DNA of 32,000 nucleotides. It comes from Nostoc punctiforme PCC 73102. GTDB taxonomy: Bacteria; Cyanobacteriota; Cyanobacteriia; Cyanobacteriales; Nostocaceae. The notes under the pieces are model-generated. The model saw nothing but the letters and a program-made list of their open reading frames with translations. It made no database searches and had not been told where the DNA came from. This document shows positions 14,275 to 32,000 of this stretch, piece after piece (positions within the stretch are counted from its first letter, which is position 1; each line of letters opens with the position of its first letter). The DNA lies in contig NC_010632.1 of assembly GCF_000020025.1 (NCBI RefSeq), positions 60,001 through 92,000 of the forward strand, written 5' to 3'. The translations under genes and the position numbers were made by a program.

Positions 14275-14336
14275 AATGTTACGAGCAAAGCTAGTGTCTG
14301 AGGAAGCAGGAGCGTAATGTTACGCGAATGTTTACG
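14275..14336. repeat. three direct copies of AATGTT(T)ACG
   Basis: AATGTTACG at 14275-14283 and 14316-14324; AATGTTTACG at 14327-14336. Related CGTAA/TTACG units are nearby, including the 12-bp palindrome CGTAAATTTACG at 14172-14183. Confidence 0.8.
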
Positions 14337-14528
14337 CACCTCTTGCTTCTGTAACGATTACTGTTTTCTACTTCGAGTGTTTAGCGTCAAAAATCAACAC
14401 TGCGATGCTCCCGTGTAACATCTGCAATTCAACACTCACGTTCCCTCTAACGTTGCCCCACGCTGCCTTGAGAACAGCGAACGCTACAGCTTTGCAGTGA
14501 TTGAATTGCTAGTGGTAAAACAATTCAT

Positions 14529-14804: not shown

Positions 14805-15087
14805 AAATCACCCTGAAGTATTGCAAATATTGGAAATCTAGCATTACTAGCTTTTATTAGCAAAGGGGGGAAAGGAGTAAAAATCAAGCAACACACGAAA
14901 ATTAATAATGCACGGCTACTATTGCTGTAATAGGATGTTTAACGGAAAAATTCGGTATAATACCCAATTATCCAACAGACTTGTCCGAACATCTTAATCG
15001 CAGTTAAGCGTTCACAGACGGCACGACAACTGTTTCGCAAGCTACTAGGGTGTTAGTATGCTTGTCTTATAAGGGAGCAGTAAGCAC

Positions 15088-15378
15088 ATGGAAAAGATCG
15101 TGATCGTGAAATGGAGAATTTTGGAGTCGGAAACGTCCCGGATACTGAAATTGCTACCGGAGCTGGCCGAGAAGACCAGATCGGAGGAAGGCAACATTTC
15201 CTACACAATTTATCAGTCGGAAAGCGATCCTTGCGAACTCATTCTTTGTGAACACTACACTGACACTGCTGCCGCAGAATCTCACAAGCGCTCGGAACAC
15301 TATAAAAGAATTGTCGCAGAAGAGATCATCCCCCATCTTGAAGCCCGCGAGGTGATATTGGTGAAGAAGCTTGTTTAA
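15088..15378 (+). CDS. ABM-domain (antibiotic biosynthesis monooxygenase / quinol monooxygenase-like) protein
   Basis: 96 aa. Typical size and pattern (E.GNISY..YQS..DP....L.E.Y.D..A...H..SEH). AAGGGAG Shine-Dalgarno about 10 nt upstream. Confidence 0.65.
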   Translation: MEKIVIVKWRILESETSRILKLLPELAEKTRSEEGNISYTIYQSESDPCELILCEHYTDTAAAESHKRSEHYKRIVAEEIIPHLEAREVILVKKLV

Positions 15379-15431
15379 AGCTCTGCCCCGAACCGAACCA
15401 AACAACCGTACTAAGGAAAAGTGGAAAAGTT

Positions 15432-16106
15432 ATGTCAAAGAAGATTCTTATTATCGTATCGAACGCGTGCGTTATTGGTCCGAACAACCGAAGGACGGGA
15501 AATTTTCTGCCAGAGGTTGCACATCCCTATGCTGAATTCGACAGAGCAAAATACCAAATTGATTTCGCAAGTCTCACCGGAGATACGCCGTTTCTGGATG
15601 CGCTCAATCTTGCTGACGACCCTGACAACCTAGCCTTCTTAGTAGGAAAAGGGTGGGCCTCAATGCAGAAAGCGAAGAAGCTCTCAGATGTGGAGGTCAG
15701 CCAGTACGATGCCATCTTTATGCCTGGCGGTTTGGCACCAATGGTCGATATGCCTGAACATCCACTTCTCAAAAAGGTTGTGAAAGAGACATACGAGCGA
15801 GGCGCTGTTGTTGGTGCCGTTTGTCACGGTCCAGCCTCGTTACTGAACGTCAAGTTGAGCAACGACACTCTCCTGCTCGCCGGGAAGAATATCAGTTCAT
15901 TTACGAACGAGGAGGAAGAAAACTACGCAAAAGCTGATGTGCCTTTCGAGTTAGAAACGGCGCTTACCAAACAAGGCGCACTCTTCCACAAGACGGTACC
16001 CTGGCAGGCATTCAGCATCGCCGATAAAAATCTCGTCACCGGACAAAATCCTGCTTCTGCCAAAGGTGTCGCAGAGAAGATGATCGCGCTATTGGAGTCT
16101 GCTTGA
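15432..16106 (+). CDS. DJ-1/PfpI (class I glutamine amidotransferase-like) family protein
   Basis: 224 aa: KILIIVSN...G....E...PY..F....Y.IDFAS, the nucleophile elbow AVCHGPASLL, and the C-terminal LVTGQNPASA. Confidence 0.8.
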   Translation: MSKKILIIVSNACVIGPNNRRTGNFLPEVAHPYAEFDRAKYQIDFASLTGDTPFLDALNLADDPDNLAFLVGKGWASMQKAKKLSDVEVSQYDAIFMPGGLAPMVDMPEHPLLKKVVKETYERGAVVGAVCHGPASLLNVKLSNDTLLLAGKNISSFTNEEEENYAKADVPFELETALTKQGALFHKTVPWQAFSIADKNLVTGQNPASAKGVAEKMIALLESA

Positions 16107-16281
16107 AGCAGCATCCTTAAAACGGTGCTGGGTCGCTGCATAACAGACAGCTTATGGTTGAAAATGCTGTCACTTGAAGGAAAAGATGGCCGGAATTAAA
16201 GAATAAAGTGCCCGCCCTTAAAACCTGGATTACTTATTTTTGCGTTGCCCTATTTTCGCCATACTTTACAAGCAATTGGGA

Positions 16282-16305
16282 ACGATATGGGAATTCCCAT
16301 ATCGT
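16282..16305. repeat. perfect 24-bp palindrome centred on GAATTC
   Basis: ACGATATGGGAATTCCCATATCGT lies between the convergent DJ-1 and UvrD-like genes. A further half-site-like GATATCGTCC is at 16366-16375. No flanking T-run. Confidence 0.9.
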
Positions 16306-16427
16306 CTCTAATAATTGAAATGGAAGGGTGCGGAAAGGAACAAGGTAGTTGGGTTCATTAAATCCGATATCGTCCAACCGAATCTGGAAAGTAATGGGCG
16401 CGGATGGTAGCAGCGATCACCATAAAT

Positions 16428-18356
16428 TTAATTTTCGGCATTTCTACATACTCGAATTTGTGGAATCAGAACAAACCAATTGTCCGAAATTTCTCCTGTT
16501 ATATCATCTCTCTTAGTATGATGATATAGATATCGGACTGTTACTTCACCAAGCTGGAACTGAAACTGTCCAGGGAAAATACCTTTATGCTTAAGAAGCT
16601 GTGTTCCTCTCTTTGATAGACAACCAATTTCATCATTATTGGGTGTGAAAATCCTCCAAGCATTATTATGGTTATTTGCTCTTAACTCAAGAACATCACC
16701 CTCACATAAGTTTTTAATAATATTTTGTCTATTTTTAGTACTTTCATATCCCAAATAAACATTAGCTGGAGCTAAATCAAAGTAACGCATTAACTGAGGA
16801 AGTTGAGTTTCACTATAACCAATAACCTCTGAAGTTAAACAAGCTTGCTGTACAAATAAATTCTGCTGAGTAGAACAAACAATTAATTCTTCTTTGGCGC
16901 GAGTCATAGCAACATAAAAGAGTCGTCGTTCTGATTCGATCTCATTACAATTAGTTTTAAATCCATCACCTAAAAGTATGACTTTACGGAACTCCAGACC
17001 TTTTGAACCATGACAGCTAGTCACTAAAACTGAGTTATCTTCTAAGAAGGATTCACCATTTTCATTAAACTCAAATATAGCAGTCAATATTTCATCAACA
17101 CTAATAGGTAGTACAATATCTTCAGATCCATAGCCTCGTTCTTTATCTAAATCTCTAGCAATATTTATTAAGATTTTAACAGTAGGTTCTGTTAAGATAC
17201 GAGCAGTACGTTCAAAAAACGCCTCAAATCTTTTCTAAACTAATTCTTCAGGATTTAAAACTAGACTATAGTCTTTCTGTAAAGCATTAATTAGTAGACG
17301 AGTACAACGGTTTTTTAGTAGTGGGATAGTATTATTTTTCAGTGCATAAGTAGATATACTTTCTTTTTCTAAAAGCAAGCGGATAGGACTCAAATCATCC
17401 CAACGACTAGCTAAAATAGCGATTTCATGAGGAGCAATCCCTACGTTGACCCAAGATTGAATTTTGTCTTTAATCCATCCTGCTTGTTGTGATAAATTAT
17501 TGAACTTCAAAGCGGAGACTGCCTCTCCTCTTAATTCTTGGCGTTCGGAGTTAATACGAACTTGCTCTTCTGGAGCCTGTTTACAGCGTATTAAGTTATT
17601 TTGTATAAGACAATTAGCAGTTTCAATAATATTTTCTGTAGAGCGGTAATTTTCGTTAAGTAATAATCGTTTTGCTTTATATTCTTCTTGGAATTGAAGG
17701 ATATATCTAGTATCAGCACCTTTAAACGTAAAAACATTTTGATCATCATCTCCAATAACACAGAGATTAATTTGTACTGACTGTGTTTTATCCTCAGATT
17801 GATTTAAGCCAGAAATTGACTTAATTAAACGATATTCTTTCTCAGTGACATCTTGGTATTCATCAACAAAGATATATTCTAATTTTCCTAATAATTGAAT
17901 TCGCCGTGCCTGAGTATCTTCATCTACATCTTCAAATTCTTCGCCTTTTTCAATTAATTCGCAAGCTTCAACCAAAAGCCGATCAAAATTTATTGTCTGA
18001 GTTCCTCTGTATTCACCTACCGTCCGTCCCAAAAGTGATAAGGCTAAACCGTGGAAAGTAAAGACCCGAATTCGTGATGCTTGTTCGCCAATCAAATTAC
18101 GCAACCGCAACCGTAATTCTCTAACTGCATTACGGTTGTAAGCTAAAACAAGAATACGCTTCGGCTCAACTCGCTTAACCTTTACAAGATAAGCAATCCG
18201 GTGAACAATAGTTCTTGTTTTACCAGAACCAGGGCCTGCTATCACTGCCATTGTTGGGTCTGAAGCTAAAACAATTTGTTTTTGAGCAGGGTTAAGCGGT
18301 TCTAGAATACGGTTATAGTCTTCTGGAAGAATCGGTCTGGTAATCTCTTGTGCCAA
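16428..18356 (-). pseudogene. UvrD/Rep-type superfamily 1 helicase with a non-helicase C-terminal tail, interrupted by one in-frame TAG
   Basis: Motifs in order: AGPGSGKTRT, IFVDEYQD, VIGDDDQNVFTFKGA, NYRSTENI, then after the stop SCHGSKGLEFRKVILL and FYVAMTRAKEEL. ORFs 17235..18356 and 16428..17087 share a frame. The only stop in 643 codons is TAG at 17235-17237, and the 49 codons between the two ORFs are open. Confidence 0.85.
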
Positions 18357-18380
18357 AAATTGGTACTTTGAAACGAATTC

Positions 18381-21300
18381 TTATTGATTTGTGCCAAAGT
18401 AATCACGAACAAATTGCTGACGCTGTTCATCTGACTTTAACTGACCATACTTCACCATGTAATGAGTGCGACGAGTTTGTTCATCATAGTGAGCTTCAAC
18501 TTCAGGGTAACGGCGTTTTACTCTGGAAACACTTGCGTTTTTTATTACACGGACTTTCAGCGACTGTTGAAAAAGATTAAGCCCATCACTTAATCGAATG
18601 ATTTTTCTCTGGTGGAGCCACAAAAGAATAACTTCTAACTCTTCATTATCCCAATCAAGTTGAGTTTTTTGAGTAACTTCTTTTGAGAGTTTTCCTAATT
18701 CGTACTTGAGAGGCAACCTTGCCCCAGTTTTATCTTCTAAAGCTTGGTATAAAACTTCTAATACAGTTGTCGTTAAAGTTTTATGCCCAGGTAAGTATTC
18801 TGCAACTTTTATATCTTGTAATCGAACCACGTCACGAGCAATACGCTTTAACTTGACCCATTTTTGAGTAGCCCATCCTTCTAAAATATCTAGAATACTG
18901 GATGCTTTAATTTTTTTACTGTTATCTGGGTCAAGTCGTGAAGCAAGCCCACGCAGATTTATCTGTATTTCATTTTCATCACCAAACAACTTACTAAGTT
19001 CTTTGAGCAATTGGTCTTCTAACTGGCGAATGCGTTGATGGTTATTGCGGGCATCTCCTTTTACACCCTTAGTAATTACAAGTGTGATTGGTATTTCAAA
19101 AGAACATATTTCAGCCCTTTGCAATTCTCGAATTCTAGCAGTCAGGTCATGTAAACTAATGCCAGCTTCATCGCTGAGACGATCTAGGGGAAACGGTTCA
19201 TCATTGCTACTACAATAAGCTTTAGCAACGTGCATTGCCTGAATCAGCCGCTCAAAGTTATCCGCCTCAAACCGAGATAAACTCTTAATCTGGTTATATT
19301 TCTCAAACTGCTCCATAGACTCTGCAAAAGTATTATGGCTCAATTCAAATTGGATAAAGCTGGAAAAGTTCTCGGCTCTTTCTAATAAACCGAAGTTTTC
19401 TAAGTAATGCAAACCTACTTTTATTTTAGTGTTTTGCTGTTCTGAATCTTCCCCAAACTCTTCATCAAAGTCGCCCTCTTGAAAGATTTCATTAGTTGTA
19501 ACCCAAAACCAATCATCTCTGGCACTCCCAAAAGTGCGATCGCGAATATGTCTGGTTGAGATCAAGACATTTTTCAAATCTTGTTCGCTCAATTGGTTCA
19601 AGCTTTGCAAACGAAAAACTGTATCAGCATCTTTTGGGTCAAAGAGTAAAGTACAAACTGCTGGCTCTCCATCACGCCCTGCCCGTCCAGCTTCTTGAAC
19701 ATAACCTTCTAAATTGGCACTCATAGAATGATGAATAACTGCTCGTACATCCTTGCGGTTAATGCCCATACCAAATGCACAAGTTGCAGTAACTACGTTC
19801 AATTTACCTGATTTGAATTCTTGCAAAACTTCCTGTTTCTTTTCTTTGGCAAGTTTCCCATGATAGTATTTAGCTTTAATATGAATTTGGTTGAGAAGTT
19901 CTGCCAGTTTTTCGGCATTCTTGCGTGTAGTAGTATAAACTAGCGTGCTACCCCCTAGCTTAACAGCTTCTTTAACTTGCTCCAGTAAGACTTGCTCTTT
20001 ATTGCCTGCTACTGGAATGACCTGAAAAGTCAGATTTTCTCTGGTTGTTGCCCCATCAATTGTACGATTAATATTTAACTTATATTGAGCAAATAGCTTT
20101 TTAATATCTTCAACAACTTTAACTGTTGCTGTTGCTGTCATCAAAGCTAACAAAGGCATTGCAAGCTGCCGTTCTTGATATAATTCCCGAACAAATTTCG
20201 GTATGTAGCGATAATCTGGTCGAAAATCGTGACCCCATTGGCTGACACAGTGAGCCTCATCAATTACCCAAAGGACGGGAGGACGCTGTTCTAGCAATGC
20301 CCGAATACTCATTGACCGCAGTTGCTCAGGACTGATATACAACAAACCTTTGGAACCAAAACGCAGTTCTTCGAGCCGTTGGCGGCGTTCTGCTGCCGAA
20401 AGATTACCATTAATAAAAGTGGAAAAGAAAAACCCAGCTTGCTCTAAATCTGCTACCTGATCCGCCATTAATGCTTGTAGCGGTGAAATTACAACAGTCA
20501 GCGCTTTGTGCCTTTCGTGGAACATGAAAGCTGGTAATTGATAGCATAAAGATTTACCACCGCCAGTAGGCATGAGAACAAGCGGACGCTCATTATTAAT
20601 AATTGCTTGTACAGCTTCTTCTTGTAAAGAGCGAAAATTAGGGATACCGAAATATTCTAAATAGGAGTTAACCGCAAATTCATCTGTATTTAAAGGGCGT
20701 AAACTCTCAAGTACTGTTTGAAATTCATTTAAATGTTTGAGCCAGTTAGAGAAAGCCTGCTTTGATTCATTGGCATTGCAGTCATAGTTCCAAGCTAGTA
20801 ATCCCGCTACGCATAATCTTGTATCGAAATCATAAGTTTGTGGACTAGACCATATTTGCTGCAAATAGGATTTATTCATCCCTTTCAGCATTGTCTCTGG
20901 CAACATTTCTATAGCAGGTTGTTCAATTTTCCAGTTAAGAATCTCACTGAAAAACTGTTGATATGCACAATCTGCATCTTCGCTACCACAAGTAAGTAGC
21001 CAAGTATATACCTGTTGTACTTCATTAGGCTTTTTAGCTATTGCTTCTAATTGTTGACGGAGCAGTAATCGAGTTGCCTGAGCATCTTCTACAGGATTAT
21101 TACTTGAATACTCACTTTGTTTATAGTCTTTATTTAGTTTGTGTGACTCCTGTAAAGGAAAAGCTAGTATTGACAGTTCTAAAGTATCGATTATGTACCA
21201 AGAAGAGAGTTCCGGCTCTTGCTCAATCAAATAAGGGTAATCAAAGCGGCGGAAGTTATGACCGCATACTGCTACTTTATTATTCTTCAGCTTTCTAATT

Positions 21301-21482
21301 TCTTCGTAAGCTTGGTTTAAAGATTCTTCCAAAAAATCCTTTGTTAAATTAGGGGATACTAATCCTATACGAAATATCTGATTTTCATTGTTAACTTCTA
21401 AATCTAAATAAGTATAAAATAATTCAATAATAGATAAGTCTTCCATATAACCCTTAATAGAATTGCCCAACCGCAATTTCAT
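18381..21482 (-). CDS. RecQ-family helicase with an N-terminal DEDD-type exonuclease-like domain and a long uncharacterised C-terminal region
   Basis: 1033 aa. Exo-like motifs: LDLEV, CGHNFRRFDYPYL, VEDAQATRLL. RecQ core: LMPTGGGKSLCYQLP, VIDEAHCVSQWGHDFRPDY, MTATAT, AFGMGINRKDVRAVIHH, QEAGRAGRDG. The stop lies 24 nt upstream of the UvrD-like start. Confidence 0.85.
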   Translation of the reverse strand: MKLRLGNSIKGYMEDLSIIELFYTYLDLEVNNENQIFRIGLVSPNLTKDFLEESLNQAYEEIRKLKNNKVAVCGHNFRRFDYPYLIEQEPELSSWYIIDTLELSILAFPLQESHKLNKDYKQSEYSSNNPVEDAQATRLLLRQQLEAIAKKPNEVQQVYTWLLTCGSEDADCAYQQFFSEILNWKIEQPAIEMLPETMLKGMNKSYLQQIWSSPQTYDFDTRLCVAGLLAWNYDCNANESKQAFSNWLKHLNEFQTVLESLRPLNTDEFAVNSYLEYFGIPNFRSLQEEAVQAIINNERPLVLMPTGGGKSLCYQLPAFMFHERHKALTVVISPLQALMADQVADLEQAGFFFSTFINGNLSAAERRQRLEELRFGSKGLLYISPEQLRSMSIRALLEQRPPVLWVIDEAHCVSQWGHDFRPDYRYIPKFVRELYQERQLAMPLLALMTATATVKVVEDIKKLFAQYKLNINRTIDGATTRENLTFQVIPVAGNKEQVLLEQVKEAVKLGGSTLVYTTTRKNAEKLAELLNQIHIKAKYYHGKLAKEKKQEVLQEFKSGKLNVVTATCAFGMGINRKDVRAVIHHSMSANLEGYVQEAGRAGRDGEPAVCTLLFDPKDADTVFRLQSLNQLSEQDLKNVLISTRHIRDRTFGSARDDWFWVTTNEIFQEGDFDEEFGEDSEQQNTKIKVGLHYLENFGLLERAENFSSFIQFELSHNTFAESMEQFEKYNQIKSLSRFEADNFERLIQAMHVAKAYCSSNDEPFPLDRLSDEAGISLHDLTARIRELQRAEICSFEIPITLVITKGVKGDARNNHQRIRQLEDQLLKELSKLFGDENEIQINLRGLASRLDPDNSKKIKASSILDILEGWATQKWVKLKRIARDVVRLQDIKVAEYLPGHKTLTTTVLEVLYQALEDKTGARLPLKYELGKLSKEVTQKTQLDWDNEELEVILLWLHQRKIIRLSDGLNLFQQSLKVRVIKNASVSRVKRRYPEVEAHYDEQTRRTHYMVKYGQLKSDEQRQQFVRDYFGTNQ

Positions 21483-21764
21483 TTATCAGAAATTGTTAAT
21501 TTAACGTACCCTAACTTTTTCAGAAGATTTTAACAGTAAGCATTGATTTATCAATAAAATAGTACAAAATTACTATTAATTAACTCACGAATGCGTTGTT
21601 ACTCCTGTTACGTAACCGCGCAACTTGTAACGTTCGGCTGACGAATTAGAGCTAATGTTTTCACAAAGTCTTGTTTTAATTTTTCCCTCAGCAGAGGCTT
21701 TTCTAACGGCTTACTGAGATAGCGAATTTTGGTACAAGATTTTACACCAATACGGCTGATGTCA

Positions 21765-21773
21765 GTCCAATAG
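21765..21773. repeat. 9-bp target-site duplication GTCCAATAG (left copy)
   Basis: Identical 9-mer at 23415-23423. Each copy abuts an IS terminal IR. Confidence 0.85.
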
Positions 21774-21882
21774 CAGCAATTCTCATCATGAGAATGATTA
21801 TAACTATCATTAGCATCTATGCAAAATTTTCAGTTAAAGGTATGGTTTTTGTATCTCAATACTCGCGAACGCAGGAGCTTTT

Positions 21883-23190
21883 TTGAATCAGCCAGGAATT
21901 TTTGACGAAATAGTACAATACTTTCAGTCAATCCTGAAAGATTTACCTGATAAGCGAACAGGCAAAAACAAACGCTATCAAATGAGTGATGCAGCATTAA
22001 GCGCATTCTCCATATTTTTTACTCAGAGTCCTTCTTTTCTTGCCCATCAAAGGTCAATGGCACATAGTAAGGGACATAATAATGCTCAAAGCTTGTTTGG
22101 GGTACACCAAATTCCAAGCGATAACCATATCCGAGATTTACTTGATGAGATAGAACCAACCGTTGTGTTTCCGGTGTTTACCAAGATTTTCAAAGCATTA
22201 GAGAATGGTAAACACTTATCAAAATTTCGTTCTTTTAAAAATAATTTGCTGATAGCTCTAGATGGAACAGAATATTTTTGCTCCAATGAAATTCACTGTG
22301 AACACTGTTCGAGCAGAACTTTTAAAAACGGAACAACTCAGTATTTTCATACTGTGGTGACACCAGTAATTGTTTGTCCTAGTAATTCTCAAGTAATCCC
22401 GTTAATACCAGAGTTTGTTGTCCCTCAAGACGGATATCAAAAGCAGGATTGTGAGAATGCGGCAGCAAAACGTTGGATTCAGAAATATGCCAAACAGTAC
22501 GCATCTCTTGGTATTACCATTTTAGGAGATGATCTTTATTGCCATCAACCTTTATGTGAATTATTACTACAAGAAAAACTAAATTTCATTCTAGTGTGTC
22601 GGTCTAAATCCCATAAAACACTTTATGAATGGTTAGAAGGAATGCCCCTTGATACATTTAGTGTCAAACATTGGAAGGGCAAAGTCTATGAGATTTATAC
22701 CTACCGTTATGTCAACCAAATTCCTTTACGGAATAGCGAGGATGCTTTATTAGTAAACTGGTGTGAATTGGCCATTACTCGCTCTGATGGGACTATAATC
22801 TACAAAAATACCTTTGCGACAAATCATCGAATCACAGATATTAATGTTGAGGCGATTGTGTCAGATGGTCGCAGCAGATGGAAAATAGAAAACGAAAATA
22901 ATAACACTCTTAAAACCAAAGGTTACAACTTAGAACATAATTTCGGACATGGGAAAACGCATTTATCCTCCCTATTAGCAACCTTTAATATCCTTGCATT
23001 TCTGTTTCATACTCTACTTGACATTATAGATGAGAAATACCAATTTATCCGCCAGCATTTACCAACACGCAAGACCTTCTTTGATGATTTACGCGCCTTA
23101 ACTCGTTATCTTTATTTTGATAGTTGGGAAAGTCTGCTTAACTTTATGATCCACGGACTGGAATTAGAATTTCATCCCAACACAAGCTGA
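21883..23190 (+). CDS. DDE transposase (IS4/ISNCY-like)
   Basis: 435 aa. LIALDGTEYF, ILGDDLYCHQP and GRSRWKIENENNNTLK fit a D-D-E triad with the R..E..K signature. Non-ATG (TTG) start; there is no in-frame ATG upstream of the N-terminal region that I recall as conserved in homologues. Confidence 0.8.
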   Translation: MNQPGIFDEIVQYFQSILKDLPDKRTGKNKRYQMSDAALSAFSIFFTQSPSFLAHQRSMAHSKGHNNAQSLFGVHQIPSDNHIRDLLDEIEPTVVFPVFTKIFKALENGKHLSKFRSFKNNLLIALDGTEYFCSNEIHCEHCSSRTFKNGTTQYFHTVVTPVIVCPSNSQVIPLIPEFVVPQDGYQKQDCENAAAKRWIQKYAKQYASLGITILGDDLYCHQPLCELLLQEKLNFILVCRSKSHKTLYEWLEGMPLDTFSVKHWKGKVYEIYTYRYVNQIPLRNSEDALLVNWCELAITRSDGTIIYKNTFATNHRITDINVEAIVSDGRSRWKIENENNNTLKTKGYNLEHNFGHGKTHLSSLLATFNILAFLFHTLLDIIDEKYQFIRQHLPTRKTFFDDLRALTRYLYFDSWESLLNFMIHGLELEFHPNTS

Positions 23191-23691: not shown

Positions 23692-26532
23692 ATGGCGCAA
23701 ACTGTGAACCATTCACCCGGTTCCATAGTCACCTGTCGCAGTCGGCAATGGGTGATACTACCTTCAGAAAATCAAGATGTTATTCGTCTACGACCGCTTT
23801 CAGGCAATGAAGATGAAATTGCTGGTATCTACCAAAAGCTTTTAGAAGAAGAGCTAGAGAAGATTGAATCAGCTACATTTCCTCTACCTCAAGCTACTAG
23901 CGTACAAGACCATGCAGCCGCACTTTTGCTCATGGATGCTGCACGTCTTCTACTCCGTAGCGGGGCGGGGCCTTTTCGCTGTTTAGGACGATTGTCACTG
24001 CGTCCCCGTCCTTACCAGTTAGTTCCTTTGTTGATGGCACTGAAGCTAGAGACGGTAAAACTGCTTGTAGCTGATGACGTGGGTATTGGTAAGACCATCG
24101 AAGCTGGATTAATAGCTCGTGAATTGCTAGACCGAGGTGAAGTTAAGCGAATTGCAGTACTGTGTCCACCACACTTATGCGATCAATGGCAGCAGGAATT
24201 ACGTGAAAAGTTTCATATTGATGCCGTGGTTGTGCGTTCTGGCACTGCTTCTAAGTTAGAGCGGAATATACCAAATAATGACAGTGTTTTTAGTTATTAT
24301 CGCCACCTGATTGTGAGCTTAGACTATGCCAAAGCAGAACGTCGTCGCGCCAGCTTTATAACTCACTGTCCTGACTTAGTAATTGTGGATGAAGCACATA
24401 CTTGCGCTCGTCCAAATAAAACTACTACATCCCAGCAGCAGCGACACCAGCTGATTACAGAAATTGCTCAAAAACAAGAACAACATTTACTGTTACTTAC
24501 AGCTACTCCTCACAGTGGGATTGAAGAATCTTTTCTCTCACTTTTAGGTTTGCTGAAGCCGGAGTTTGAGCATTTCAATCTCAATAGCTTAACTGACAAA
24601 CAACGTGACCACTTAGCCAATCATTTCGTTCAGCGCAGACGAGCAGATGTCAAGCTTTGGCTAGGGAATGAAACTCCTTTTCCTGAACGAGAGTCAAGCG
24701 AGGAATCATATAAGTTATCAAAAGAGTACAAAGAACTATTTGATGAAGTCTATGATTTTGCCCGTGGTCTAGTGAAAACGACTACGGCTGATATGAGTCA
24801 TGCTCAACGTCGGGGAAGATACTGGTCGGCTTTGGCTTTGATTCGTTGTGTCATGTCTTCACCTGCGGCTGCGATCGCTACATTAAATCGCCAAGTTAGT
24901 AAATCAGGTGGCTCATTGACTGATTTGGATGAAGACTTGATGAGTTCTTATGTCCACGATCCTACAGAACAGGAACAAGCCGTTGACGCATCGCCAACTG
25001 TAGTAATAGAGCAGGGGCAGCAAAGTTATAAAGACGCAGATAAACGTAAGTTAAAAGCTTTTGTGCAATCAGCAGAGAAGTTACAAGGTGGCAAAGACCA
25101 AAAACTGCAATCGTGCATCGCTACAGTAGAATCTTTGCTCAAAGACGAGATGAACCCTATTGTCTGGTGTCGCTATATTGCTACTGCAAATTATGTAGCT
25201 GATGCTCTCAGGCAAAAGTTACAGAAGAAAGGTAGCCAAATTCGGGTAATTGCCATTACTGGAGAACTTTCAGAGGATGAGCGTGAAATTCGCCTAGAAG
25301 AGTTAAAATCTTATCCCCAACGAGTGCTAGTTGCTACAGATTGTTTAAGTGAAGGGGTAAACCTGCAAACGCACTTCAGTGCAGTAATTCACTATGATTT
25401 ACCCTGGAATCCTAATCGGTTAGAACAACGCGAAGGACGTATCGACCGCTACGGACAAACAGCAACTAAGGTAAAAGCCTGCTTGCTTTATGGTCGAGAT
25501 AATCCTGTTGATGGTGCAGTTCTCGATGTTCTGATTCGCAAAGCTGTGCAGATTCACAAGTCTTTAGGGATTACAGTTCCCGTACCAATGGAAAGCACTA
25601 CTGTAGCAGAAGCAGTATTTAAATCACTGTTTGAAAGGACTACAGAAGTTATCCAGTTATCACTGTTTGATTTTCAGGAAGAATCTGCGGTTGATAAAGT
25701 ACATAAGAATTGGGACAACGCAGTAGAACGCGAAAAAACTAATCGTACCCGTTTTGCTCAACGTGCCATTAAGCCAGAGCAAGTAGAACAAGAACTCATC
25801 GACTCTGACCAGATTTTAGGGAATGAACAGGATGTAGAGCGATTTGTCATCTCTGCTTGCGATCGCATTTCTTGTTATTTGATCAAGAAAAAGCAGGGAT
25901 GGTTATTACCGCAGCCACCAGATTTCCTCAAGTCAACGTTAGGCGATAAGTCTCGTTTACTTACATTTACTACCCCAGCACCAGAAGGTGTGGAATATGT
26001 AGGGCGAAATCACCCTTTAGTAGAAGGTTTAGCGCAATACATTTTAGAAGATGCACTTTCTCTGGCGGTTGAACCAATCGCAGCAAGATGTGGGTTCACT
26101 ACGACTAATGCTGTTCAAAAGCGCACGACTTTGCTGTTAGTACGGTTACGGCATTTGCTAGACAGTTCTAGGCGTACTACAGAGACAAAAAATACTACAT
26201 TACTAGCAGAAGAATGTGCAGTTATCGGGTTTACTGGTTCACCTTCTAGCCCTAATTGGTTGCCGCAGTTAGAAGCAACTAGAGTATTACAAGAAGCAAA
26301 GCCAGTCAGCGATGCTGGTAAAGCTATCAAGCAGGGAGAAATTGCTGAATTACTTCCCAGACTAGAAGAACTACAGCCAGATTTAGAAAAGTTTGCAGGC
26401 CAAAGAGCAGAAGAATTATTACAAAGCCATAAGCGGGTGAGGGACATCACCAAAGAAGGTCGAATCCGCGTTACTCCGCAATTGCCGATGGATGTTCTCG
26501 GTGTTTTTATTCTCCAACCCGGACGCAAGTAA
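23692..26532 (+). CDS. drmD: SNF2-family helicase, DISARM class 1 DrmD-like
   Basis: 946 aa: LRPRPYQL, ADDVGIGKTIEAG, VIVDEAHTCA, LLTATP, ATDCLSEGVNLQ, DLPWNPNRLEQREGRIDRYGQ. Immediately followed by the large MTase and a DELH helicase. Confidence 0.8.
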   Translation: MAQTVNHSPGSIVTCRSRQWVILPSENQDVIRLRPLSGNEDEIAGIYQKLLEEELEKIESATFPLPQATSVQDHAAALLLMDAARLLLRSGAGPFRCLGRLSLRPRPYQLVPLLMALKLETVKLLVADDVGIGKTIEAGLIARELLDRGEVKRIAVLCPPHLCDQWQQELREKFHIDAVVVRSGTASKLERNIPNNDSVFSYYRHLIVSLDYAKAERRRASFITHCPDLVIVDEAHTCARPNKTTTSQQQRHQLITEIAQKQEQHLLLLTATPHSGIEESFLSLLGLLKPEFEHFNLNSLTDKQRDHLANHFVQRRRADVKLWLGNETPFPERESSEESYKLSKEYKELFDEVYDFARGLVKTTTADMSHAQRRGRYWSALALIRCVMSSPAAAIATLNRQVSKSGGSLTDLDEDLMSSYVHDPTEQEQAVDASPTVVIEQGQQSYKDADKRKLKAFVQSAEKLQGGKDQKLQSCIATVESLLKDEMNPIVWCRYIATANYVADALRQKLQKKGSQIRVIAITGELSEDEREIRLEELKSYPQRVLVATDCLSEGVNLQTHFSAVIHYDLPWNPNRLEQREGRIDRYGQTATKVKACLLYGRDNPVDGAVLDVLIRKAVQIHKSLGITVPVPMESTTVAEAVFKSLFERTTEVIQLSLFDFQEESAVDKVHKNWDNAVEREKTNRTRFAQRAIKPEQVEQELIDSDQILGNEQDVERFVISACDRISCYLIKKKQGWLLPQPPDFLKSTLGDKSRLLTFTTPAPEGVEYVGRNHPLVEGLAQYILEDALSLAVEPIAARCGFTTTNAVQKRTTLLLVRLRHLLDSSRRTTETKNTTLLAEECAVIGFTGSPSSPNWLPQLEATRVLQEAKPVSDAGKAIKQGEIAELLPRLEELQPDLEKFAGQRAEELLQSHKRVRDITKEGRIRVTPQLPMDVLGVFILQPGRK

Positions 26533-26556: not shown

Positions 26557-29500
26557 ATGAAAACTACATTAACTGCACTTCAAATCGAAGGAAATCTACT
26601 AGCTCCAGATATGACTGCCCAAATGTTAGAAGGCAGTATCAAAGGGCAATCACCTGAAGACTTTGGGTTTAACAAAACTGACAAATTAGCAGATGAAATT
26701 GCTACTGCTTGGGGCGATGCTAAAGCATATTGGGCAGCATTCCAACGGGCATTGGCAAGGCTAGATGAAAATAACTCGGCTACAAGTATTACTCGTGAAT
26801 TATGGGCAGTGCCATTATTACAGAGTCTAGGTTATGACCCCGTATATACTGCAACTGCCGAGGTAGTGGAGGATAAAACTTATGCAATTTCCCACCGTGC
26901 AGAACCGGGGGAAAATAAACCACCCATCCACATTATTGGTTGTCGGCTAGAAGTTGATAAACGTCCTCCTAGTGGTAATCCCCGGCTATCAGCACACGCA
27001 CTGGTGCAGGAGTATCTTAACAAGACAGAACATTTGTGGGCGATCGCTACCAATGGTTTTCGTTGGCGGTTACTGCGCGATTCTTCGCTGATGACTCGCC
27101 TTACTTACGTTGAATTTGATTTAGAGCAGATTCTTAACGGCGAGAACTTTGCTGAGTTTGGATTATTTTATCGCCTGTTTCATCGTTCCCGCTTGCCTGA
27201 AGGTGTGGATGATGCAAACAAGTGTTTGTTGGAATATTATCACCAAGAAGCACTGCAACAAGGGGGACGGGTACGCGATAAACTTCGGGATGGGGTAGAA
27301 AAAGCATTAATTGGGCTAGGGAATGGTTTTCTACAACATCCCGCAAATGAGCATCTTCGACAAAAGTTTGCAGATGGCAGTTTGAAAGATATTGATTACT
27401 ACCGTCAATTGTTACGGTTGATTTATCGCTTACTATTTTTGATGGTGGCAGAGTCCCGTAATTTGCTATTCGTTACAGATGATTTAGAACAAGTTCGGAT
27501 CTACCGTGAATACTACAGCATTGAGCGACTGCGAGAGTTATCCGAACGTCCCCATTGGCGGCGGGAAGGATTTCAAGATTTATGGCAGGGTTTGTGGGTT
27601 ACTTTCTTACTATTTGATGAAAACTGGCGCGGAGAGGTATTAGGGTTATCTCCCTTAAATGGTGACTTATTCGGTTCTACAACTCTACCAGCGTTAGAGA
27701 ATTGTGCAATTGACAATTATGATTTACTTCTTGCTATTCGCCAATTATCGCTGTACCTAGACAAGGCACAACTGCGGCGGGTGAATTATGAATATCTTGA
27801 CGTGGAAGAGTTGGGCAGTGTTTATGAAAGTTTGCTTGATTTTCATCCCCAAGTAGTACAGAAGCAGGGCAAATACGAATTTGCGTTAGTGTTTGGTAGC
27901 GATCGCAAAACTACTGGTTCTTACTATACCCCACCACAACTAGTACAGCAGCTAATCAAAACTGCGCTAGAACCTGTCATTGAAGATAAATTAGCTCAAG
28001 TTCGTAGCCAAGCTTCTACACCATCCAGCCCGGATGAACTAAAGCATAATTTAGAAAAAGGTTTACTCAGCCTCAAAATTTGCGATCCTGCTTGTGGTTC
28101 TGGACATTTTTTATTAGCAGCAGCGCGTCGTGTTGGTAAGGAACTTGCTAAAGTACGCACTGGGGAAGCAGAACCAGGAAGTGAACCTTTAAAATTTGCG
28201 ATGCGAGATGTTATCCAAAATTGTATTTATGGGGTGGATTTAAACCCCTTAGCAGTAGATTTGTGTAAGGTAGCATTATGGATTGAAGGCTTTCCAGGTA
28301 AATTACCACTTAGCTTTTTAGACCACAGAATTAAATGCGGTAATTCCCTTGTTGGAGTTTCGGACATTAACTGTCTGGATGAAGGAATACCCGATGAAGC
28401 GTATAAAGCTGTGACTGGGGATGATAAGAAGTTAGCTACACAGCTTAAAAAGCGTAATAAGAAAGAACGCGAAAATAAAGGACAATTATCTATAAGTGAA
28501 ACTTTAGAACCTAAACGAACACACTATGCAGAAAGTGTGCGGGAGTTAGGTAATATTGCTGAATTAACTCCGCAGCAAGTAAGAGAAAAGCAAGAACGAT
28601 ATCAACAAACTCGTAGAGATTCAGAATGGTGGCGTGATTATTCAGCCTGTAATTTGTGGACTGCGGCATTTTTTATTCCGTTAACAGAACAAAACTTACA
28701 GTTATTACCGACAACAGAAACGTTAATTCAGCTTTTACGTAGCAGTTTACCAAACCAAATAATAGTAGATGCAGCAAATCAGTTAGCTGAAGAAAAACAT
28801 TTTTTTCACTGGTGTCTAGAATTCCCTGAAGTATTTGAAGTGGGTGGTTTTGATTGTATATTAGGTAATCCGCCTTGGGAACGTATTAAGTTACAAGAAA
28901 AGGAATTTTTTGCTTCTCGTAGTGCTGCAATAGCAAATGCTGTAAACAAAGCAGCACGGGAAAAGTTGATTAAAGAATTACCAAATAAAAATCCTGAGTT
29001 AGCACAAGCTTGGGAAGAGACTAGGCATGATGCAGAAGCACAAAGTAAATTTATCCGCGAATCAAGTAGATTTCCACTGACTGCTGTGGGAGATATAAAT
29101 ACTTATGCTGTGTTTGCTGAGACAACAAGAAAGTTGATTTCAGCCAATGGAAGGATTGGTGTAATTATTCCTACAGGAATTGCTACTGATTCAACTACTT
29201 CAGCATTTTTTCGAGATTTAGTTGAATCATTAAGCCTTCAAGGAATAATAGGTTTTGAAAATGAAAGATTTTTATTCTCAGGAATTGATCACAGAGTATC
29301 CTTTTGTATGATTTTTCTTGGTGGAGCAGAATGTAAATTTAGCAAAATGAACTTCTCGTGGTTTGGTTGGAATATTTCACAAGCAACTCAAGCTGATAGA
29401 CAAGTAACTTTAAGCAAATCGGACTTTAACAAAATAAATCCTAATACATTTAACTGTCCGATTTTTCGTACTAACGCAGATGCTGAACTAACTAAGAAAA

Positions 29501-30432
29501 TTTATCACAGGATACCTATTTTAGAAAATGAAGTTACAGGTATTACACCTTGGAATATTTCATTTATACGTATGTTTGATATATCAAATGATAGTCATTT
29601 ATTTAAAAACAAAGAAGAAAATGGATTACTTACACTCTATGAAGCGAAGATGTTTTATCAATTCGATCATCGTTACTCAAGTTATGAAGGAGCAACTCAA
29701 GCTGATTTAAATGTTGGTATATTACCAAAGCCATCAGTAGAAGCTAAACAAAATCCTCATTTTTTTGTTAAGCCTCGTTACTGGATCAACAAATCTGAGA
29801 TAGAAAATCGGTTAGATAGTAAATGGGAACAAGATTGGCTGTTAGCATTTAGAAGTATTGGGCGTTCAAATAATGAACGAACTGCTATTTTTAGTGTTTT
29901 ACCTAAAGTCGCTGTAGGGCATAAAGCACCACTTACATTAGTTAATAAAATTTTTATTCCATTAATTACTTGTTTATTAGCTAACTTCAATTCCTTAATA
30001 TTTGATTATGTAACTAGACAAAAAATGGGTGGGACTGACTTTAGTTATTTTATTCTTAAACAACTACCTGTTATTCCTCCAGAAGCATATACTCAAGCAA
30101 ATATTGAGTTTATTAACACTCGTATAATCGAATTAGTCTACACCGCCTGGGATATGCAACCCTTCGCCAAAGACATGGGATACAACGGCGAACCCTTTAT
30201 TTGGAACAGCAATAGACGTGCATTATTAAAAGCAGAATTGGACGCATATTACGCCAAACTCTACGGACTTACCCGTGATGAACTGCGGTATATTCTTGAC
30301 CCTGCGGATGTATATGGTGAAGACTTTCCTAGCGAAACATTCCGTGTCTTGAAGAATAACGAAATTAAGCAGTTTGGGGAATATCGTACACAAAGATTAG
30401 TTTTAGAGGCATGGGACAGAATGTTTGGATAA
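26557..30432 (+). CDS. drmMI: large N6-adenine DNA methyltransferase (Eco57I/PglX-like), DISARM class 1 DrmMI-like
   Basis: 1291 aa. GSYYTPPQLV, SAM motif ICDPACGSGHFLL and catalytic ILGNPPWERIK (motif I before motif IV, gamma-class order). Context: between the SNF2 and DrmA-like helicases. Confidence 0.8.
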   Translation: MKTTLTALQIEGNLLAPDMTAQMLEGSIKGQSPEDFGFNKTDKLADEIATAWGDAKAYWAAFQRALARLDENNSATSITRELWAVPLLQSLGYDPVYTATAEVVEDKTYAISHRAEPGENKPPIHIIGCRLEVDKRPPSGNPRLSAHALVQEYLNKTEHLWAIATNGFRWRLLRDSSLMTRLTYVEFDLEQILNGENFAEFGLFYRLFHRSRLPEGVDDANKCLLEYYHQEALQQGGRVRDKLRDGVEKALIGLGNGFLQHPANEHLRQKFADGSLKDIDYYRQLLRLIYRLLFLMVAESRNLLFVTDDLEQVRIYREYYSIERLRELSERPHWRREGFQDLWQGLWVTFLLFDENWRGEVLGLSPLNGDLFGSTTLPALENCAIDNYDLLLAIRQLSLYLDKAQLRRVNYEYLDVEELGSVYESLLDFHPQVVQKQGKYEFALVFGSDRKTTGSYYTPPQLVQQLIKTALEPVIEDKLAQVRSQASTPSSPDELKHNLEKGLLSLKICDPACGSGHFLLAAARRVGKELAKVRTGEAEPGSEPLKFAMRDVIQNCIYGVDLNPLAVDLCKVALWIEGFPGKLPLSFLDHRIKCGNSLVGVSDINCLDEGIPDEAYKAVTGDDKKLATQLKKRNKKERENKGQLSISETLEPKRTHYAESVRELGNIAELTPQQVREKQERYQQTRRDSEWWRDYSACNLWTAAFFIPLTEQNLQLLPTTETLIQLLRSSLPNQIIVDAANQLAEEKHFFHWCLEFPEVFEVGGFDCILGNPPWERIKLQEKEFFASRSAAIANAVNKAAREKLIKELPNKNPELAQAWEETRHDAEAQSKFIRESSRFPLTAVGDINTYAVFAETTRKLISANGRIGVIIPTGIATDSTTSAFFRDLVESLSLQGIIGFENERFLFSGIDHRVSFCMIFLGGAECKFSKMNFSWFGWNISQATQADRQVTLSKSDFNKINPNTFNCPIFRTNADAELTKKIYHRIPILENEVTGITPWNISFIRMFDISNDSHLFKNKEENGLLTLYEAKMFYQFDHRYSSYEGATQADLNVGILPKPSVEAKQNPHFFVKPRYWINKSEIENRLDSKWEQDWLLAFRSIGRSNNERTAIFSVLPKVAVGHKAPLTLVNKIFIPLITCLLANFNSLIFDYVTRQKMGGTDFSYFILKQLPVIPPEAYTQANIEFINTRIIELVYTAWDMQPFAKDMGYNGEPFIWNSNRRALLKAELDAYYAKLYGLTRDELRYILDPADVYGEDFPSETFRVLKNNEIKQFGEYRTQRLVLEAWDRMFG

Positions 30433-30483
30433 GCTAAAATATTATGTTTATTTGCTCACTTGATTAAATTTCAACTTTTTTCT

Positions 30484-30933
30484 ATGTTTAACAACAACGA
30501 TCTTATAGAGAAAAATAAAGAACTCAAAGAACAAATAAAAAATTCTAGAGATGCTTATCAAGCTAGATTCATCCGCAATCAGTACACAAATAATCTCATC
30601 ATAGCTTTATCACTTATATTAAAAGTTCTAATTGCCGTAACTGGTACTAGCCCAGCTTTTAAAGATGCTAAAAACCCTTGGGCTGCTCCACTTGGAGTTT
30701 CAGCCTCAGCTTGGTTAGGGCTAATATCAACTGCACTTGTAAGTATTCAAAGACTTTACAACATTCAAGAAAAAATTGCTTTCTATCCTGCTTATATAGT
30801 TAAAGCTGAAGAACTACTTGAAGATTTTAATGCTATTACAAACCAAGAAGAACTAGAGTCTGTACGCAAGCAATTTAGACAAATGCGTGCAGATGAGGCA
30901 CTCAAGCGACCTATAGAACGTTCAAATATTTAA
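30484..30933 (+). CDS. small two-transmembrane-helix protein (SLATT-like topology)
   Basis: 149 aa from the first ATG; the track start 30460 is a TTG. Two hydrophobic spans, LIIALSLILKVLIAVTG and AAPLGVSASAWLGLISTALVSI, are flanked by charged helical segments. The stop lies 13 nt before the drmA-like ATG. Confidence 0.55.
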   Translation: MFNNNDLIEKNKELKEQIKNSRDAYQARFIRNQYTNNLIIALSLILKVLIAVTGTSPAFKDAKNPWAAPLGVSASAWLGLISTALVSIQRLYNIQEKIAFYPAYIVKAEELLEDFNAITNQEELESVRKQFRQMRADEALKRPIERSNI

Positions 30934-30946
30934 AACTCTAAAAATA

Positions 30947-32000
30947 ATGAAACTCCCAATTAAACTTCAGGACTTATTACAGCAAAATGAAAGTGCAATT
31001 GTAGCAGCCAGCACGTTTCTTAGCCAAAAACTAGCATTGTTAGATTGTACAGGTGTGGTAACTGTCACTTCTGAACAATTAGCTCTGTTATTTTCTAGCA
31101 TTCCTGAAGATTGGGATTTCCAAGAATTTGAAGAACTTCTCAACATATCTACTGTTAATCCTATTTTCTATCACCAACTGCAAGAATGGATTAATCAGCG
31201 ATTAGGAAATACTCAAGCCGAACCTCCAAGTACGAATGAAGAATTAGCAAATACTAACGATCTCGATATTTTTAACTTCCGCAACGAGGTAATAGACGAC
31301 TACCGCCGTTATATAGAAAGCTTTCTCAAAATCCGCGATCGCAAAGTCAAAGAATTTGTAGATGCAGAATTAGACAAGGGACAACTTTGGACTGATCCCT
31401 TAGTACAACTCAATCCCAGTTATAAAAAAGGTGCAACAGCCAAAGAATTAGTACAACAGCAAATTCTTCATCCAGACTCTGAGAAATACTTTTGTAGAAA
31501 AGACGGTACACCTTTTACTTTTCACTACCACCAAAAGCAAGCATTTGAAACTGCACAACGCCAACAACCTTACGTTGTTACCACAGGAACAGGTTCCGGT
31601 AAAAGCATGACTTACGTCGTGCCGATCTTTGATGATTTATTGCGTCATCCCGAAATTTTAGGAGTCAGGGCAATATTGGTTTATCCCATGAATGCCTTGA
31701 TTAACTCACAAAAAGAAGAACTCGACAAATTTTTACGCCAAGTTCCGAATACTCATATTCGTGTTGAAAAATACACTGGGCAAGAAAGTTTAACCAGGAA
31801 AACCGAAATTCAAAACAATCCACCCCATATTTTACTCACCAACTATGTGATGTTAGAGTTAATGCTCTCACGCACTCACGAAAATAAACTGGTAGAGTCT
31901 CCCAATTTAAAATTCCTGGTACTGGATGAATTACACACCTATCGGGGACGACAAGGCGCAGATGTTGCTATATTGATCCGCAAACTCCGTCAGCGTAGCA
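30947..32000 (+). CDS. drmA: DEAD/DEAH-box helicase, DISARM DrmA-like, 5' partial (continues beyond the window)
   Basis: Not in the ORF track because it has no stop in the window. I translated it by hand from the ATG at 30947 and found the frame open to 32000. Motifs: VVTTGTGSGKSMTY, LVYPMNALINSQ, ILLTNYVMLE, LVLDELHTYRGRQGADVA. Confidence 0.8.
   Translation, partial: MKLPIKLQDLLQQNESAIVAASTFLSQKLALLDCTGVVTVTSEQLALLFSSIPEDWDFQEFEELLNISTVNPIFYHQLQEWINQRLGNTQAEPPSTNEELANTNDLDIFNFRNEVIDDYRRYIESFLKIRDRKVKEFVDAELDKGQLWTDPLVQLNPSYKKGATAKELVQQQILHPDSEKYFCRKDGTPFTFHYHQKQAFETAQRQQPYVVTTGTGSGKSMTYVVPIFDDLLRHPEILGVRAILVYPMNALINSQKEELDKFLRQVPNTHIRVEKYTGQESLTRKTEIQNNPPHILLTNYVMLELMLSRTHENKLVESPNLKFLVLDELHTYRGRQGADVAILIRKLRQRS

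Follow-up and report, generated by a model that had tools for sequence, protein, structure and literature searches.

Which defence system carries a small membrane-protein gene in the middle of a Nostoc operon, and what could such a protein contribute to it? This question is raised by a stretch of 32,000 nucleotides from Nostoc punctiforme PCC 73102 (contig NC_010632.1, positions 60,001 to 92,000; in the following called the window), in which a gene for a protein with two predicted transmembrane (TM) helices lies between the genes of an adenine methyltransferase and of a large helicase. A sequence-only reading of the window had named these two neighbours drmMI and drmA and had regarded the operon as a class 1 DISARM system with an additional gene resembling those of SLATT proteins (SMODS and SLOG-associating 2TM effectors), possibly for a membrane effector or else for a regulator or anti-toxicity factor. 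According to the analysis presented here, the operon is assigned to type I of the ARMADA systems, the small gene appears to encode a divergent SLATT-fold protein which may serve the operon as an accessory membrane effector, and the junction that it occupies is a hypervariable cargo slot. The recognition of this slot is the added value of the analysis. The first description of ARMADA dates only from 2025 and presents a non-abortive system of three or four genes; neither a conserved membrane-protein gene nor a fixed slot with changing cargo is part of it.

An ARMADA type I operon with a fourth gene

ARMADA combines a BrxHII/SNF2-like helicase, a PglX-like methylase and a YprA-like helicase, the latter being closest to that of Druantia and carrying a C-terminal Vsr nuclease; in cyanobacteria the helicase-methylase pair comes first and is followed by the YprA gene (Bell et al., 2025; PMC12458937). 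The same order, armA-armB-[SLATT]-armC, is found in the window (Table 1). The product of armA is matched by the PADLOC models DpdE (E-value 9e-208), DrmD (1e-99) and BrxHII (4e-55), and it reaches 374 bits with the NCBIfam DrmD model, which is under the 610-bit cut-off. For ArmB the PADLOC matches are DrmMI (8e-81), REase_MTase_IIG (3e-61) and PglX (6e-11). The full armC, which runs off the window, and the genes downstream of it were read from contigs carrying an identical SLATT-like protein; the 3′ fragment present in the window is identical to the corresponding part of one of these (L001; labels of this kind denote the loci compared). The full ArmC contains DEAD and Helicase_C domains, an MZB domain (DUF1998; 3.1e-7) and a C-terminal Vsr-like MTES_1575 domain (2.9e-5, under its Pfam cut-off). 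Among the PADLOC models it matches DruE3 (1.8e-92) and DruE1 (1.4e-87) much better than DrmA (4.6e-13).

ArmC of the window is 89% identical to BAY42014.1 (NIES2111_64100), for which Table S1 of Bell et al. (2025; PMC12458937) gives the entry "ARMADA Type I helicase"; the table also includes the homologues from HK-01, Planktothrix NIES-204 and Chroococcidiopsis PCC 7203. A SLATT homologue (NIES2111_64090) is encoded immediately upstream of NIES2111_64100. The window operon contains the defining parts of ARMADA type I, namely a DruE-branch helicase with DUF1998 and Vsr-type nuclease, a BrxHII-like SNF2 helicase and a PglX-like methylase. As the large helicase is of the fused DruE type, as DrmB and DrmC are missing and as ArmC is this similar to a listed ARMADA Type I helicase, the operon is, judged by its gene content, an ARMADA type I operon.

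That the operon is instead a class 1 DISARM system (drmD, drmMI, drmA, drmB, drmC) which acquired a membrane effector in the order drmD-drmMI-X-drmA is very improbable. The SNF2 helicase and the adenine methylase are homologous in both systems, each of which also has a helicase with DUF1998; the first two match the DrmD and DrmMI models, and both of these proteins are common to ARMADA and class 1 DISARM (PMC12458937). However, the third core gene is of the DruE/ARMADA type, the DrmD match stays below its cut-off, and the close homologues appear in the published table under ARMADA Type I. In contrast to DISARM, a separate DrmB gene is absent, with DUF1998 being fused into the single 1782-aa helicase; the nuclease is fused C-terminally, and no PLD (DrmC) gene was found in or beside the operon in L001, L020, L023, L121 and L124. 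The DISARM frame does therefore not hold, and the names drmMI and drmA have to be replaced by armB and armC. A SNF2 helicase, a methylase and a DUF1998 helicase do not by themselves amount to DISARM, an annotation trap which is corrected here.

Compared with ARMADA type I as published, which consists of three genes, the window operon has a fourth one, the membrane-protein gene between armB and armC. SLATT or transmembrane proteins are nowhere mentioned in the description of ARMADA (PMC12458937). An ArmD gene (RelE-GajB-like helicase) was not found after armC in L001, where a convergent CBASS is located instead.

A conserved gene for a probable divergent SLATT-fold protein

The open reading frame (ORF) of 149-157 amino acids (aa) predicted by the sequence-only reading is present in the ORF list and in the raw sequence, in operon orientation on the + strand from 30460 (TTG) or 30484 (ATG) to 30933, with 13 nt left between its end and the ATG of armC, as had been stated. 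Since the homologues are all about 149 aa long and the TTG extension is not conserved (e.g., in the copy of NIES-2111), the ATG at 30484 is taken as the true start. A word-indexed protein search yielded 63 homologous protein clusters, which are 57-91% identical, all cyanobacterial and nearly all of about 149 aa. An alignment of 22 family members contains 45 invariant columns, including the motifs RNQY.NN before and GTSP.FK after the first TM helix, PLG..A.AWLG..ST within the second and Q.LYN..EK..FYP after it. Pairwise ratios of nonsynonymous to synonymous substitution (dN/dS) range from 0.09 to 0.37. These features identify the ORF, beyond a chance reading frame, as a genuine conserved gene that is under purifying selection.

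The gene had also been called very AT-rich against 45-48% G+C in neighbouring segments of the methylase gene. The sample from 30481 to 30540, given as 23% G+C, was recomputed to 23.3%, but the contrast was drawn too strongly. G+C amounts to 34.4% in the whole ORF and to 34.6% in the final third of the methylase gene next to it, compared with 38.8% for the full methylase gene and 39.6% for the window; values of 46-47% are reached only by a few 300-nt segments in the 5′ part of the methylase gene. The low G+C content belongs to the entire central part of the operon and not to the SLATT-like gene alone, and AT-richness is a weak argument for a foreign origin of the gene. A foreign origin by base composition was rejected as the G+C content of the ORF equals that of the adjoining methylase segment. 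When the surroundings of the gene were searched for scars of an insertion and for flanking repeats, only short matches typical of AT-rich sequence came up, the best being a 13-nt imperfect inverted repeat (30396-30408 and 30936-30948) which was not used as evidence.

Two hydrophobic helices with charged flanks were confirmed at aa 36-55 and 67-91 by Kyte-Doolittle hydropathy and by an AlphaFold model. With a 19-residue window, hydropathy peaks at 2.19 (aa 38-56) and 1.71 (aa 70-88); the hydrophobic stretches are preceded by an N-terminus rich in lysine and arginine and followed by a highly charged C-terminus. The model, built on the family alignment (mean pLDDT 83), comprises the helices 12-55, 67-91, 94-116 and 121-141, of which the long first one would start in the cytoplasm and enter the membrane; the membrane helix 67-91 and two more helices come after it. 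This corresponds to the architecture of the SLATT superfamily, a 2-TM hairpin flanked by cytoplasmic alpha-helices.

With the NCBIfam models the window protein reaches 20.2 bits for SLATT_1 (E-value 5e-4) and 18.8 bits for SLATT_4 (1e-3), the curated cut-offs being 41 and 55 bits, respectively. Such matches recur throughout the family, in 20 of the 22 members for SLATT_4 and in 19 for SLATT_1, with a best E-value of about 4e-6 and with most of the profiles covered; Pfam SLATT_1 matches just four of the 22 members (E-values of at least 0.003). An exhaustive hidden Markov model (HMM) profile search of 1.8 billion representatives retrieved 25 clusters at an E-value of 0.001 or lower, which indicates that the family is narrow. 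The distant relatives from this search have the same architecture and obtain 28.7-33.5 bits with SLATT_1 (1e-6 to 3.5e-8; cut-off 41). A Foldseek search of BFVD with the model placed annotated SLATT proteins at ranks 1, 2, 7, 10, 16 and 44 (TM-score 0.58-0.71, probability 0.87-1.0), with weak E-values (0.02-0.8). The top matches are giant-virus proteins that carry a SLATT domain annotation (probability 1.00, TM-score 0.65-0.72, root mean square deviation 3.4-4.2 Å, E-value at least 0.02). In the PDB there was no meaningful match by sequence and none by Foldseek at an E-value below 0.001.

As the profile matches are sub-threshold but consistent and as they are joined by the fold matches in BFVD, the protein is regarded as a divergent SLATT-fold protein. 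In this form the earlier SLATT-like call stands, carried by the NCBIfam matches, the distant relatives and the top viral folds, whereas strict membership in a curated family does not apply. The protein resembles SLATT proteins (Pfam SLATT_1-6, DUF4231; NCBIfam NF033634, NF033632) in its size of about 150 aa, in the succession of helix, 2-TM hairpin and C-terminal helices, in its profile and best structural matches and in its location in a defence operon. It differs from them in scoring under every curated cut-off, in forming a narrow cyanobacterial subfamily of its own and in lacking a nucleotide-signal enzyme, a TIR protein or a reverse transcriptase as partner, with most family members having no conserved neighbour. 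A literature search retrieved nothing relevant on SLATT proteins together with DISARM or with cyanobacteria.

The armB-armC junction as a cargo slot

The cassette armA-armB-SLATT-armC was confirmed in seven ARMADA loci of Nostoc and Scytonema, including the window, and the genes flanking it differ. The six further loci are a plasmid of Nostoc NIES-2111 (L020), a Logan contig (L023), two JGI loci (L121 and L123), a JGI contig without DNA and Scytonema sp. PRP1 (L124). Identity of the SLATT-like protein to that of the window falls from 90% (L023) to 75% (Scytonema L124, with 81% for ArmA and 83% for ArmC), and between the cassette loci it amounts to 75-91%, next to 81-96% for ArmA and 83-96% for ArmC. 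The spacer between the SLATT-like gene and armC measures 13 nt in L020, L023 and L123 and 46-55 nt in L121 and L124. In a neighbour-joining tree of ArmC (like that of the SLATT-like proteins below, a distance tree without support values) the SLATT-bearing loci span the crown clade of the Nostocales, including a basal Scytonema branch, and are interspersed with loci holding other cargo. The idea that the cassette is confined to one small Nostoc clade was dropped after L121, L123 and Scytonema L124 had been found.

What lies between armB and armC is highly variable. In 43 loci with both edges visible, the length of the junction lies between 16 bp and 6.4 kb; about six of these slots are empty. 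Recurring cargo consists of Rpn/DUF2887 genes (eight loci), of an about 700-aa homologue of the ParE-UvrD helicase of L037 (seven loci) and of Uma2 genes (four loci), and 51 of the slot ORFs are singletons. Nostoc flagelliforme pNFSY08 (L030), whose ArmC is 94% identical to that of the window, has an empty 52-bp junction at the exact site, which confirms the earlier claim that an extra gene is inserted between the methylase and the large helicase. In a plasmid of the Lobaria cyanobiont the slot contains an AAA_17 kinase-like gene and a B12-binding radical-SAM gene, in Nostoc HK-01 a gene for a 414-aa protein of unknown kind and in Dolichospermum a VapBC pair. Chroococcidiopsis has genes for DUF2513, an Rpn nuclease and a PIN/AbrB pair at this place, Planktothrix has DUF2887 and Uma2, Euhalothece has four-helix-bundle and UPF0175/DUF3368 genes, and Pseudanabaena has, among others, an 805-aa ParE-UvrD (ArmD-like) helicase.

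The edges of the slot can be located by blastn, where homology breaks at the stop codon of the methylase gene and again at the start of armC or at about its codon 105. Homology between the window and L030 ends at 30428. The first approximately 105 codons of armC (30947-31261) are in some loci swapped along with the slot: homology to L031, L032 and L034 restarts only at about 31262, and distant ArmC homologues align only from residue 106. Within armB, homology to sister loci is lost at about 28910-29220 and returns at about 29433 or 29974, and where loci share 85-96% identity in ArmA and ArmC, their ArmB proteins reach only 70-81%. This armB block probably represents a swapped target-recognition region. 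A comparison of the window with L121 gives 96% identity for both ArmA and ArmC, but only 81% for the SLATT-like protein and 75% for ArmB; the operon therefore recombines or diversifies more quickly in its middle than at its two ends. By these alignments the armB block and the slot together form a fast-changing operon centre, and the armB-armC junction can be regarded as a hypervariable cargo slot.

Defence genes embedded in other operons or hotspots, such as the restriction genes within BREX loci or the cargo of P2/P4 hotspots, share a fixed site, conserved flanks and interchangeable contents. Unlike such hotspots, the ARMADA slot is an intergenic junction inside an operon and not the flank of an island.

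Several individual loci add to this picture of the junction. In L030 (7807-11952) the methylase gene is split, and its C-terminal piece, annotated as "restriction endonuclease", aligns to the 3′ end of the window methylase. The slot of L037 contains, immediately upstream of armC, a UvrD/GajB-like helicase with a ParE/RelE N-terminus (6479-8896), that is, of the ArmD type of ARMADA type II; homologues occur in the slot of L063, L072, L073, L085 and L088 (ORFs of 690-706 aa) and as fragments in L054, seven loci in all. In ARMADA type II as described, ArmD follows armC. A plasmid of Candidatus Chlorohelix (L039) carries an ARMADA type I operon in the canonical order with armC first, in which a 389-aa gene (14116-15285; PADLOC JukB, 7.6e-23) sits between armC and the SNF2 helicase gene and a four-helix-bundle gene between the helicase and methylase genes; junctions other than armB-armC therefore take up cargo as well. 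In plasmid1 of Calothrix brevissima NIES-22 (L040, 8988-16776) the ARMADA operon is eroded, with a truncated methylase and with armC cut to 112 aa by an IS66 transposase.

Possible role of the SLATT-like protein

Our preferred reading, in which we place an even measure of confidence, is that this ARMADA variant uses its SLATT-fold cargo as an accessory effector at the membrane. The effector role is proposed because of the predicted function of SLATT proteins and because of the precedent of DRT10. SLATT proteins are predicted to be pore-forming effectors (Burroughs et al., 2015, as cited in PMC7159879), and their original definition was based on an association with SMODS/CD-NTase-type nucleotidyltransferases (PMC7159879). 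In the DRT10 reverse-transcriptase defence system, a small SLATT protein is the essential effector and is proposed to respond to accumulated DNA (10.64898/2026.04.29.721553). DRT10 (UG17), which consists of a reverse transcriptase, a non-coding RNA and a SLATT-5 protein, resembles the window operon in that a small stand-alone SLATT protein is tightly linked to a defence enzyme which processes DNA; it differs in its partner enzyme and in its SLATT subfamily, however, and SLATT belongs to the constant core of DRT10, whereas it is optional and lineage-specific in ARMADA. SLATT proteins are optional add-ons in some GTPase conflict systems (PMC7159879) and likewise in some PANGU operons.

The product of the gene would be an inner-membrane protein with an N-terminal cytoplasmic helix, a two-helix TM hairpin and two C-terminal cytoplasmic helices, so that both ends probably lie in the cytoplasm. 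The gene would be co-transcribed with armABC, and its product might act as a latent pore-forming or membrane-depolarising effector, as is thought of SLATT proteins elsewhere. This could provide the ARMADA variant with a second, abortive line of defence, for which DNA intermediates made by ArmC, or a failure of ArmC, are possible triggers. In favour of a linkage to the operon are the common strand, the short spacers of 51 and 13 nt, the lack of a terminator, the same position in seven loci and the purifying selection. A scan against shuffled sequences revealed no terminator between the operon genes and, for the SLATT-like gene, no promoter of its own above chance; in the spacer between armB and the gene no terminator-like site was found, and the one promoter-like match (30413-40) does not exceed shuffled sequence.

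A number of observations weigh against an effector role. At the level of the protein, Pfam and PADLOC scans of the window protein gave nothing significant, and all its sequence matches to SLATT models, with about 20 bits against 41 and 55, are under the curated cut-offs. At the level of the operon, a nucleotide-signal generator (the classic partner of SLATT proteins), a SLOG or TIR protein or a reverse transcriptase is not encoded in it, and the sole ARMADA that has been tested (type II, from E. coli) is non-abortive and protects without membrane permeabilisation (PMC12458937). In 80 further ARMADA loci from metagenome contigs, fetched via ArmC, a SLATT gene was not found in any. As the slot is promiscuous, holding Rpn/DUF2887, Uma2, toxin-antitoxin and four-helix-bundle genes and the many singletons in other loci, position alone is no proof of a functional coupling. 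Moreover, all homologues that were examined beyond the ARMADA-linked clade are chromosomal stand-alone genes in housekeeping surroundings, and an all-against-all BLAST of the neighbouring genes in 11 genomes revealed no conserved partner beside these copies. Tolypothrix tenuis PCC 7101 contains both a stand-alone SLATT homologue (NIES37_02530; L024, 8001-8450, between recR and ftsH) and an ARMADA type I helicase (NIES37_38990), which are not linked to each other.

Several of these points also fit with the SLATT-like gene being an independent passenger, that is, a self-contained conflict or selfish gene which sits in a permissive slot and uses the transcription of the operon without cooperating with ArmA, ArmB or ArmC. 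We consider such a reading somewhat unlikely, but it has to be taken seriously as an alternative, given the many unrelated genes in this slot elsewhere. It is in line with the unrelated mobile or selfish genes that occupy the slot in other loci (Rpn/DUF2887, Uma2, VapBC/PIN pairs, four-helix-bundle genes and singletons), with the stand-alone relatives, some of which adjoin DUF433/PIN toxin-antitoxin pairs, with the lack of SLATT genes in the metagenomic loci and with the recombination of the operon centre. On the other hand, the same position, strand and short spacers are kept, under purifying selection, across loci down to 83% identity of ArmC, and the gene shows no promoter signal of its own above chance. 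In addition, a latent pore protein acting by itself would still have to be triggered by something, and the SLATT-like gene has no neighbour that encodes such a trigger.

A non-lethal role at the membrane, as an anchor or regulator of ARMADA (e.g., near DNA entry sites), as an anti-toxicity factor or as a physiological protein unrelated to defence, appears rather improbable. The very strong conservation of the cytoplasmic helices and of the short external loop, with its 45 invariant columns, would fit specific protein contacts, stand-alone copies lie between housekeeping genes (recR/ftsH, cbiD/guaA), and the tested ARMADA is non-abortive. Unlike a core physiological gene, however, the family is sporadic (11 species genomes of the 185,579 scanned; 25 clusters among 1.8 billion representatives), all of its family-level similarity leads to SLATT, a predicted pore-forming effector, and most ARMADA loci work without a SLATT-like gene.

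Two further explanations are less probable still. In contigs identical to the window, a CBASS follows just past armC (L001, 12952-17549), composed of a 465-aa CD-NTase (PADLOC Cyclase, 2e-204) and a 1237-aa Metallophos-SAVED protein. As the original definition of SLATT proteins was based on an association with nucleotidyltransferases of this kind, the SLATT-like gene could be regarded as a cyclic-nucleotide-responsive effector of this neighbour, which we judge highly improbable. The CBASS is encoded on the opposite strand at a distance of 5.3 kb, with armC in between, possesses its own SAVED effector and is not found beside the SLATT-bearing loci L020, L023, L121 and L124. Because it is convergent, has its own effector, is missing from the other SLATT-bearing loci and occurs only in the lineage of the window, its adjacency appears to be a coincidence of island packing. 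An origin as a phage holin or as a remnant of a lysis gene, finally, is hardly conceivable. A small 2-TM protein with charged ends does resemble a holin, but no homologue was found in 50,697 phage genomes, IMG/VR contigs or PHROGs, nor are there phage genes nearby in the operon; tblastn against INPHARED phages, the IMG/VR scan and PHROGs were all without a match, and a phage origin was rejected. A tblastn search of the protein against PLSDB plasmids gave no match either.

An accessory membrane effector remains the reading that we prefer. A more far-reaching version of it, which we regard as unlikely, would make the junction a dedicated, recombination-driven cargo slot, i.e., an intra-operon defence hotspot, and would have the SLATT-like protein of Nostoc and Scytonema wired to ArmC, giving the normally non-abortive, DNA-targeting ARMADA a membrane-collapsing second tier that is triggered by ArmC-processed DNA or by failure of ArmC. 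If the SLATT-like protein is coupled to ArmC, a DNA-sensing helicase-nuclease would be linked to a membrane effector; for DRT10, the activation of SLATT was still called an open question in 2026 (10.64898/2026.04.29.721553). If it is uncoupled, the slot would still offer a compact collection of small conflict genes assembled naturally in cyanobacteria, including nucleases, toxin-antitoxin pairs, a kinase and radical-SAM pair and an ArmD-like helicase.

Stand-alone relatives and history of the gene

Besides the copies in Tolypothrix and Aulosira, which lie between recR and ftsH, stand-alone relatives are located beside cbiD and guaA in Nostoc FACHB strains and in other housekeeping surroundings in Anabaena and Microcoleus. 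In the neighbour-joining tree of the SLATT-like proteins, the ARMADA-embedded copies and the stand-alone copies of Tolypothrix and Aulosira form one clade which is nested within the stand-alone majority. The simplest reading of this tree is a single capture of a chromosomal SLATT-like gene into the slot, followed by long retention, by later replacement or loss in some loci and perhaps by one escape back to the chromosome. In a metagenome-assembled genome of Nostoc sp. S4 (L019, 7575-7986) the alignment of the SLATT homologue falls into two pieces that are not in the same reading frame, so that a frameshifted pseudogene or an error of assembly is the probable explanation.

Surroundings of the operon

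Upstream of armA, the segment from 8747 to 23190 looks like a plasmid-borne island. It contains transposase, recombinase and helicase genes, some of them split or in pieces, which are listed in Table 1 together with the features of the operon. For all of these except the IS4-like transposase, the assignment follows the annotation of similar plasmid DNA.

Table 1. Coordinates of the operon and of neighbouring features in the window
Feature	Position	Strand	Remarks
SLATT-like 2-TM protein gene	30484-30933	+	149 aa from ATG; alternative TTG at 30460 gives 157 aa
Codons of predicted transmembrane helix 1 (aa 36-55)	30589-30648	+	hydropathy; model helix 12-55
Codons of predicted transmembrane helix 2 (aa 67-91)	30682-30756	+	invariant PLG..A.AWLG..ST; hydropathy and model helix
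51-nt spacer between armB and SLATT-like gene	30433-30483	+	upstream edge of cargo slot
13-nt spacer between SLATT-like gene and armC	30934-30946	+	armC ATG at 30947
armA, SNF2/BrxHII-RapA-like helicase	23692-26532	+	946 aa; first operon gene; Pfam SNF2-rel_dom, Helicase_C
armB, PglX/type IIG-like N6-adenine methyltransferase	26557-30432	+	1291 aa; Pfam Eco57I, N6_Mtase, MmeI_Mtase
Hypervariable low-G+C block (31-34%) within armB	28910-29974	+	blastn breaks and restarts
armC, 5′ part, YprA/DruE-like helicase	30947-32000	+	runs off the window; 1782 aa in identical contigs
Split Tn3-family transposase	8747-11792	-	annotation of similar plasmid DNA
XerD-like recombinase	11914-12828		annotation of similar plasmid DNA
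Two UvrD-like pieces	16428-18356	-	annotation of similar plasmid DNA
RecQ-like helicase	18381-21482	-	1033 aa; annotation of similar plasmid DNA
IS4-like transposase	21883-23190		own match, not transferred annotation

Within the operon itself, a 137-aa ORF on the - strand (26115-26528) lies antisense and wholly within the SNF2 helicase gene and is most likely spurious.

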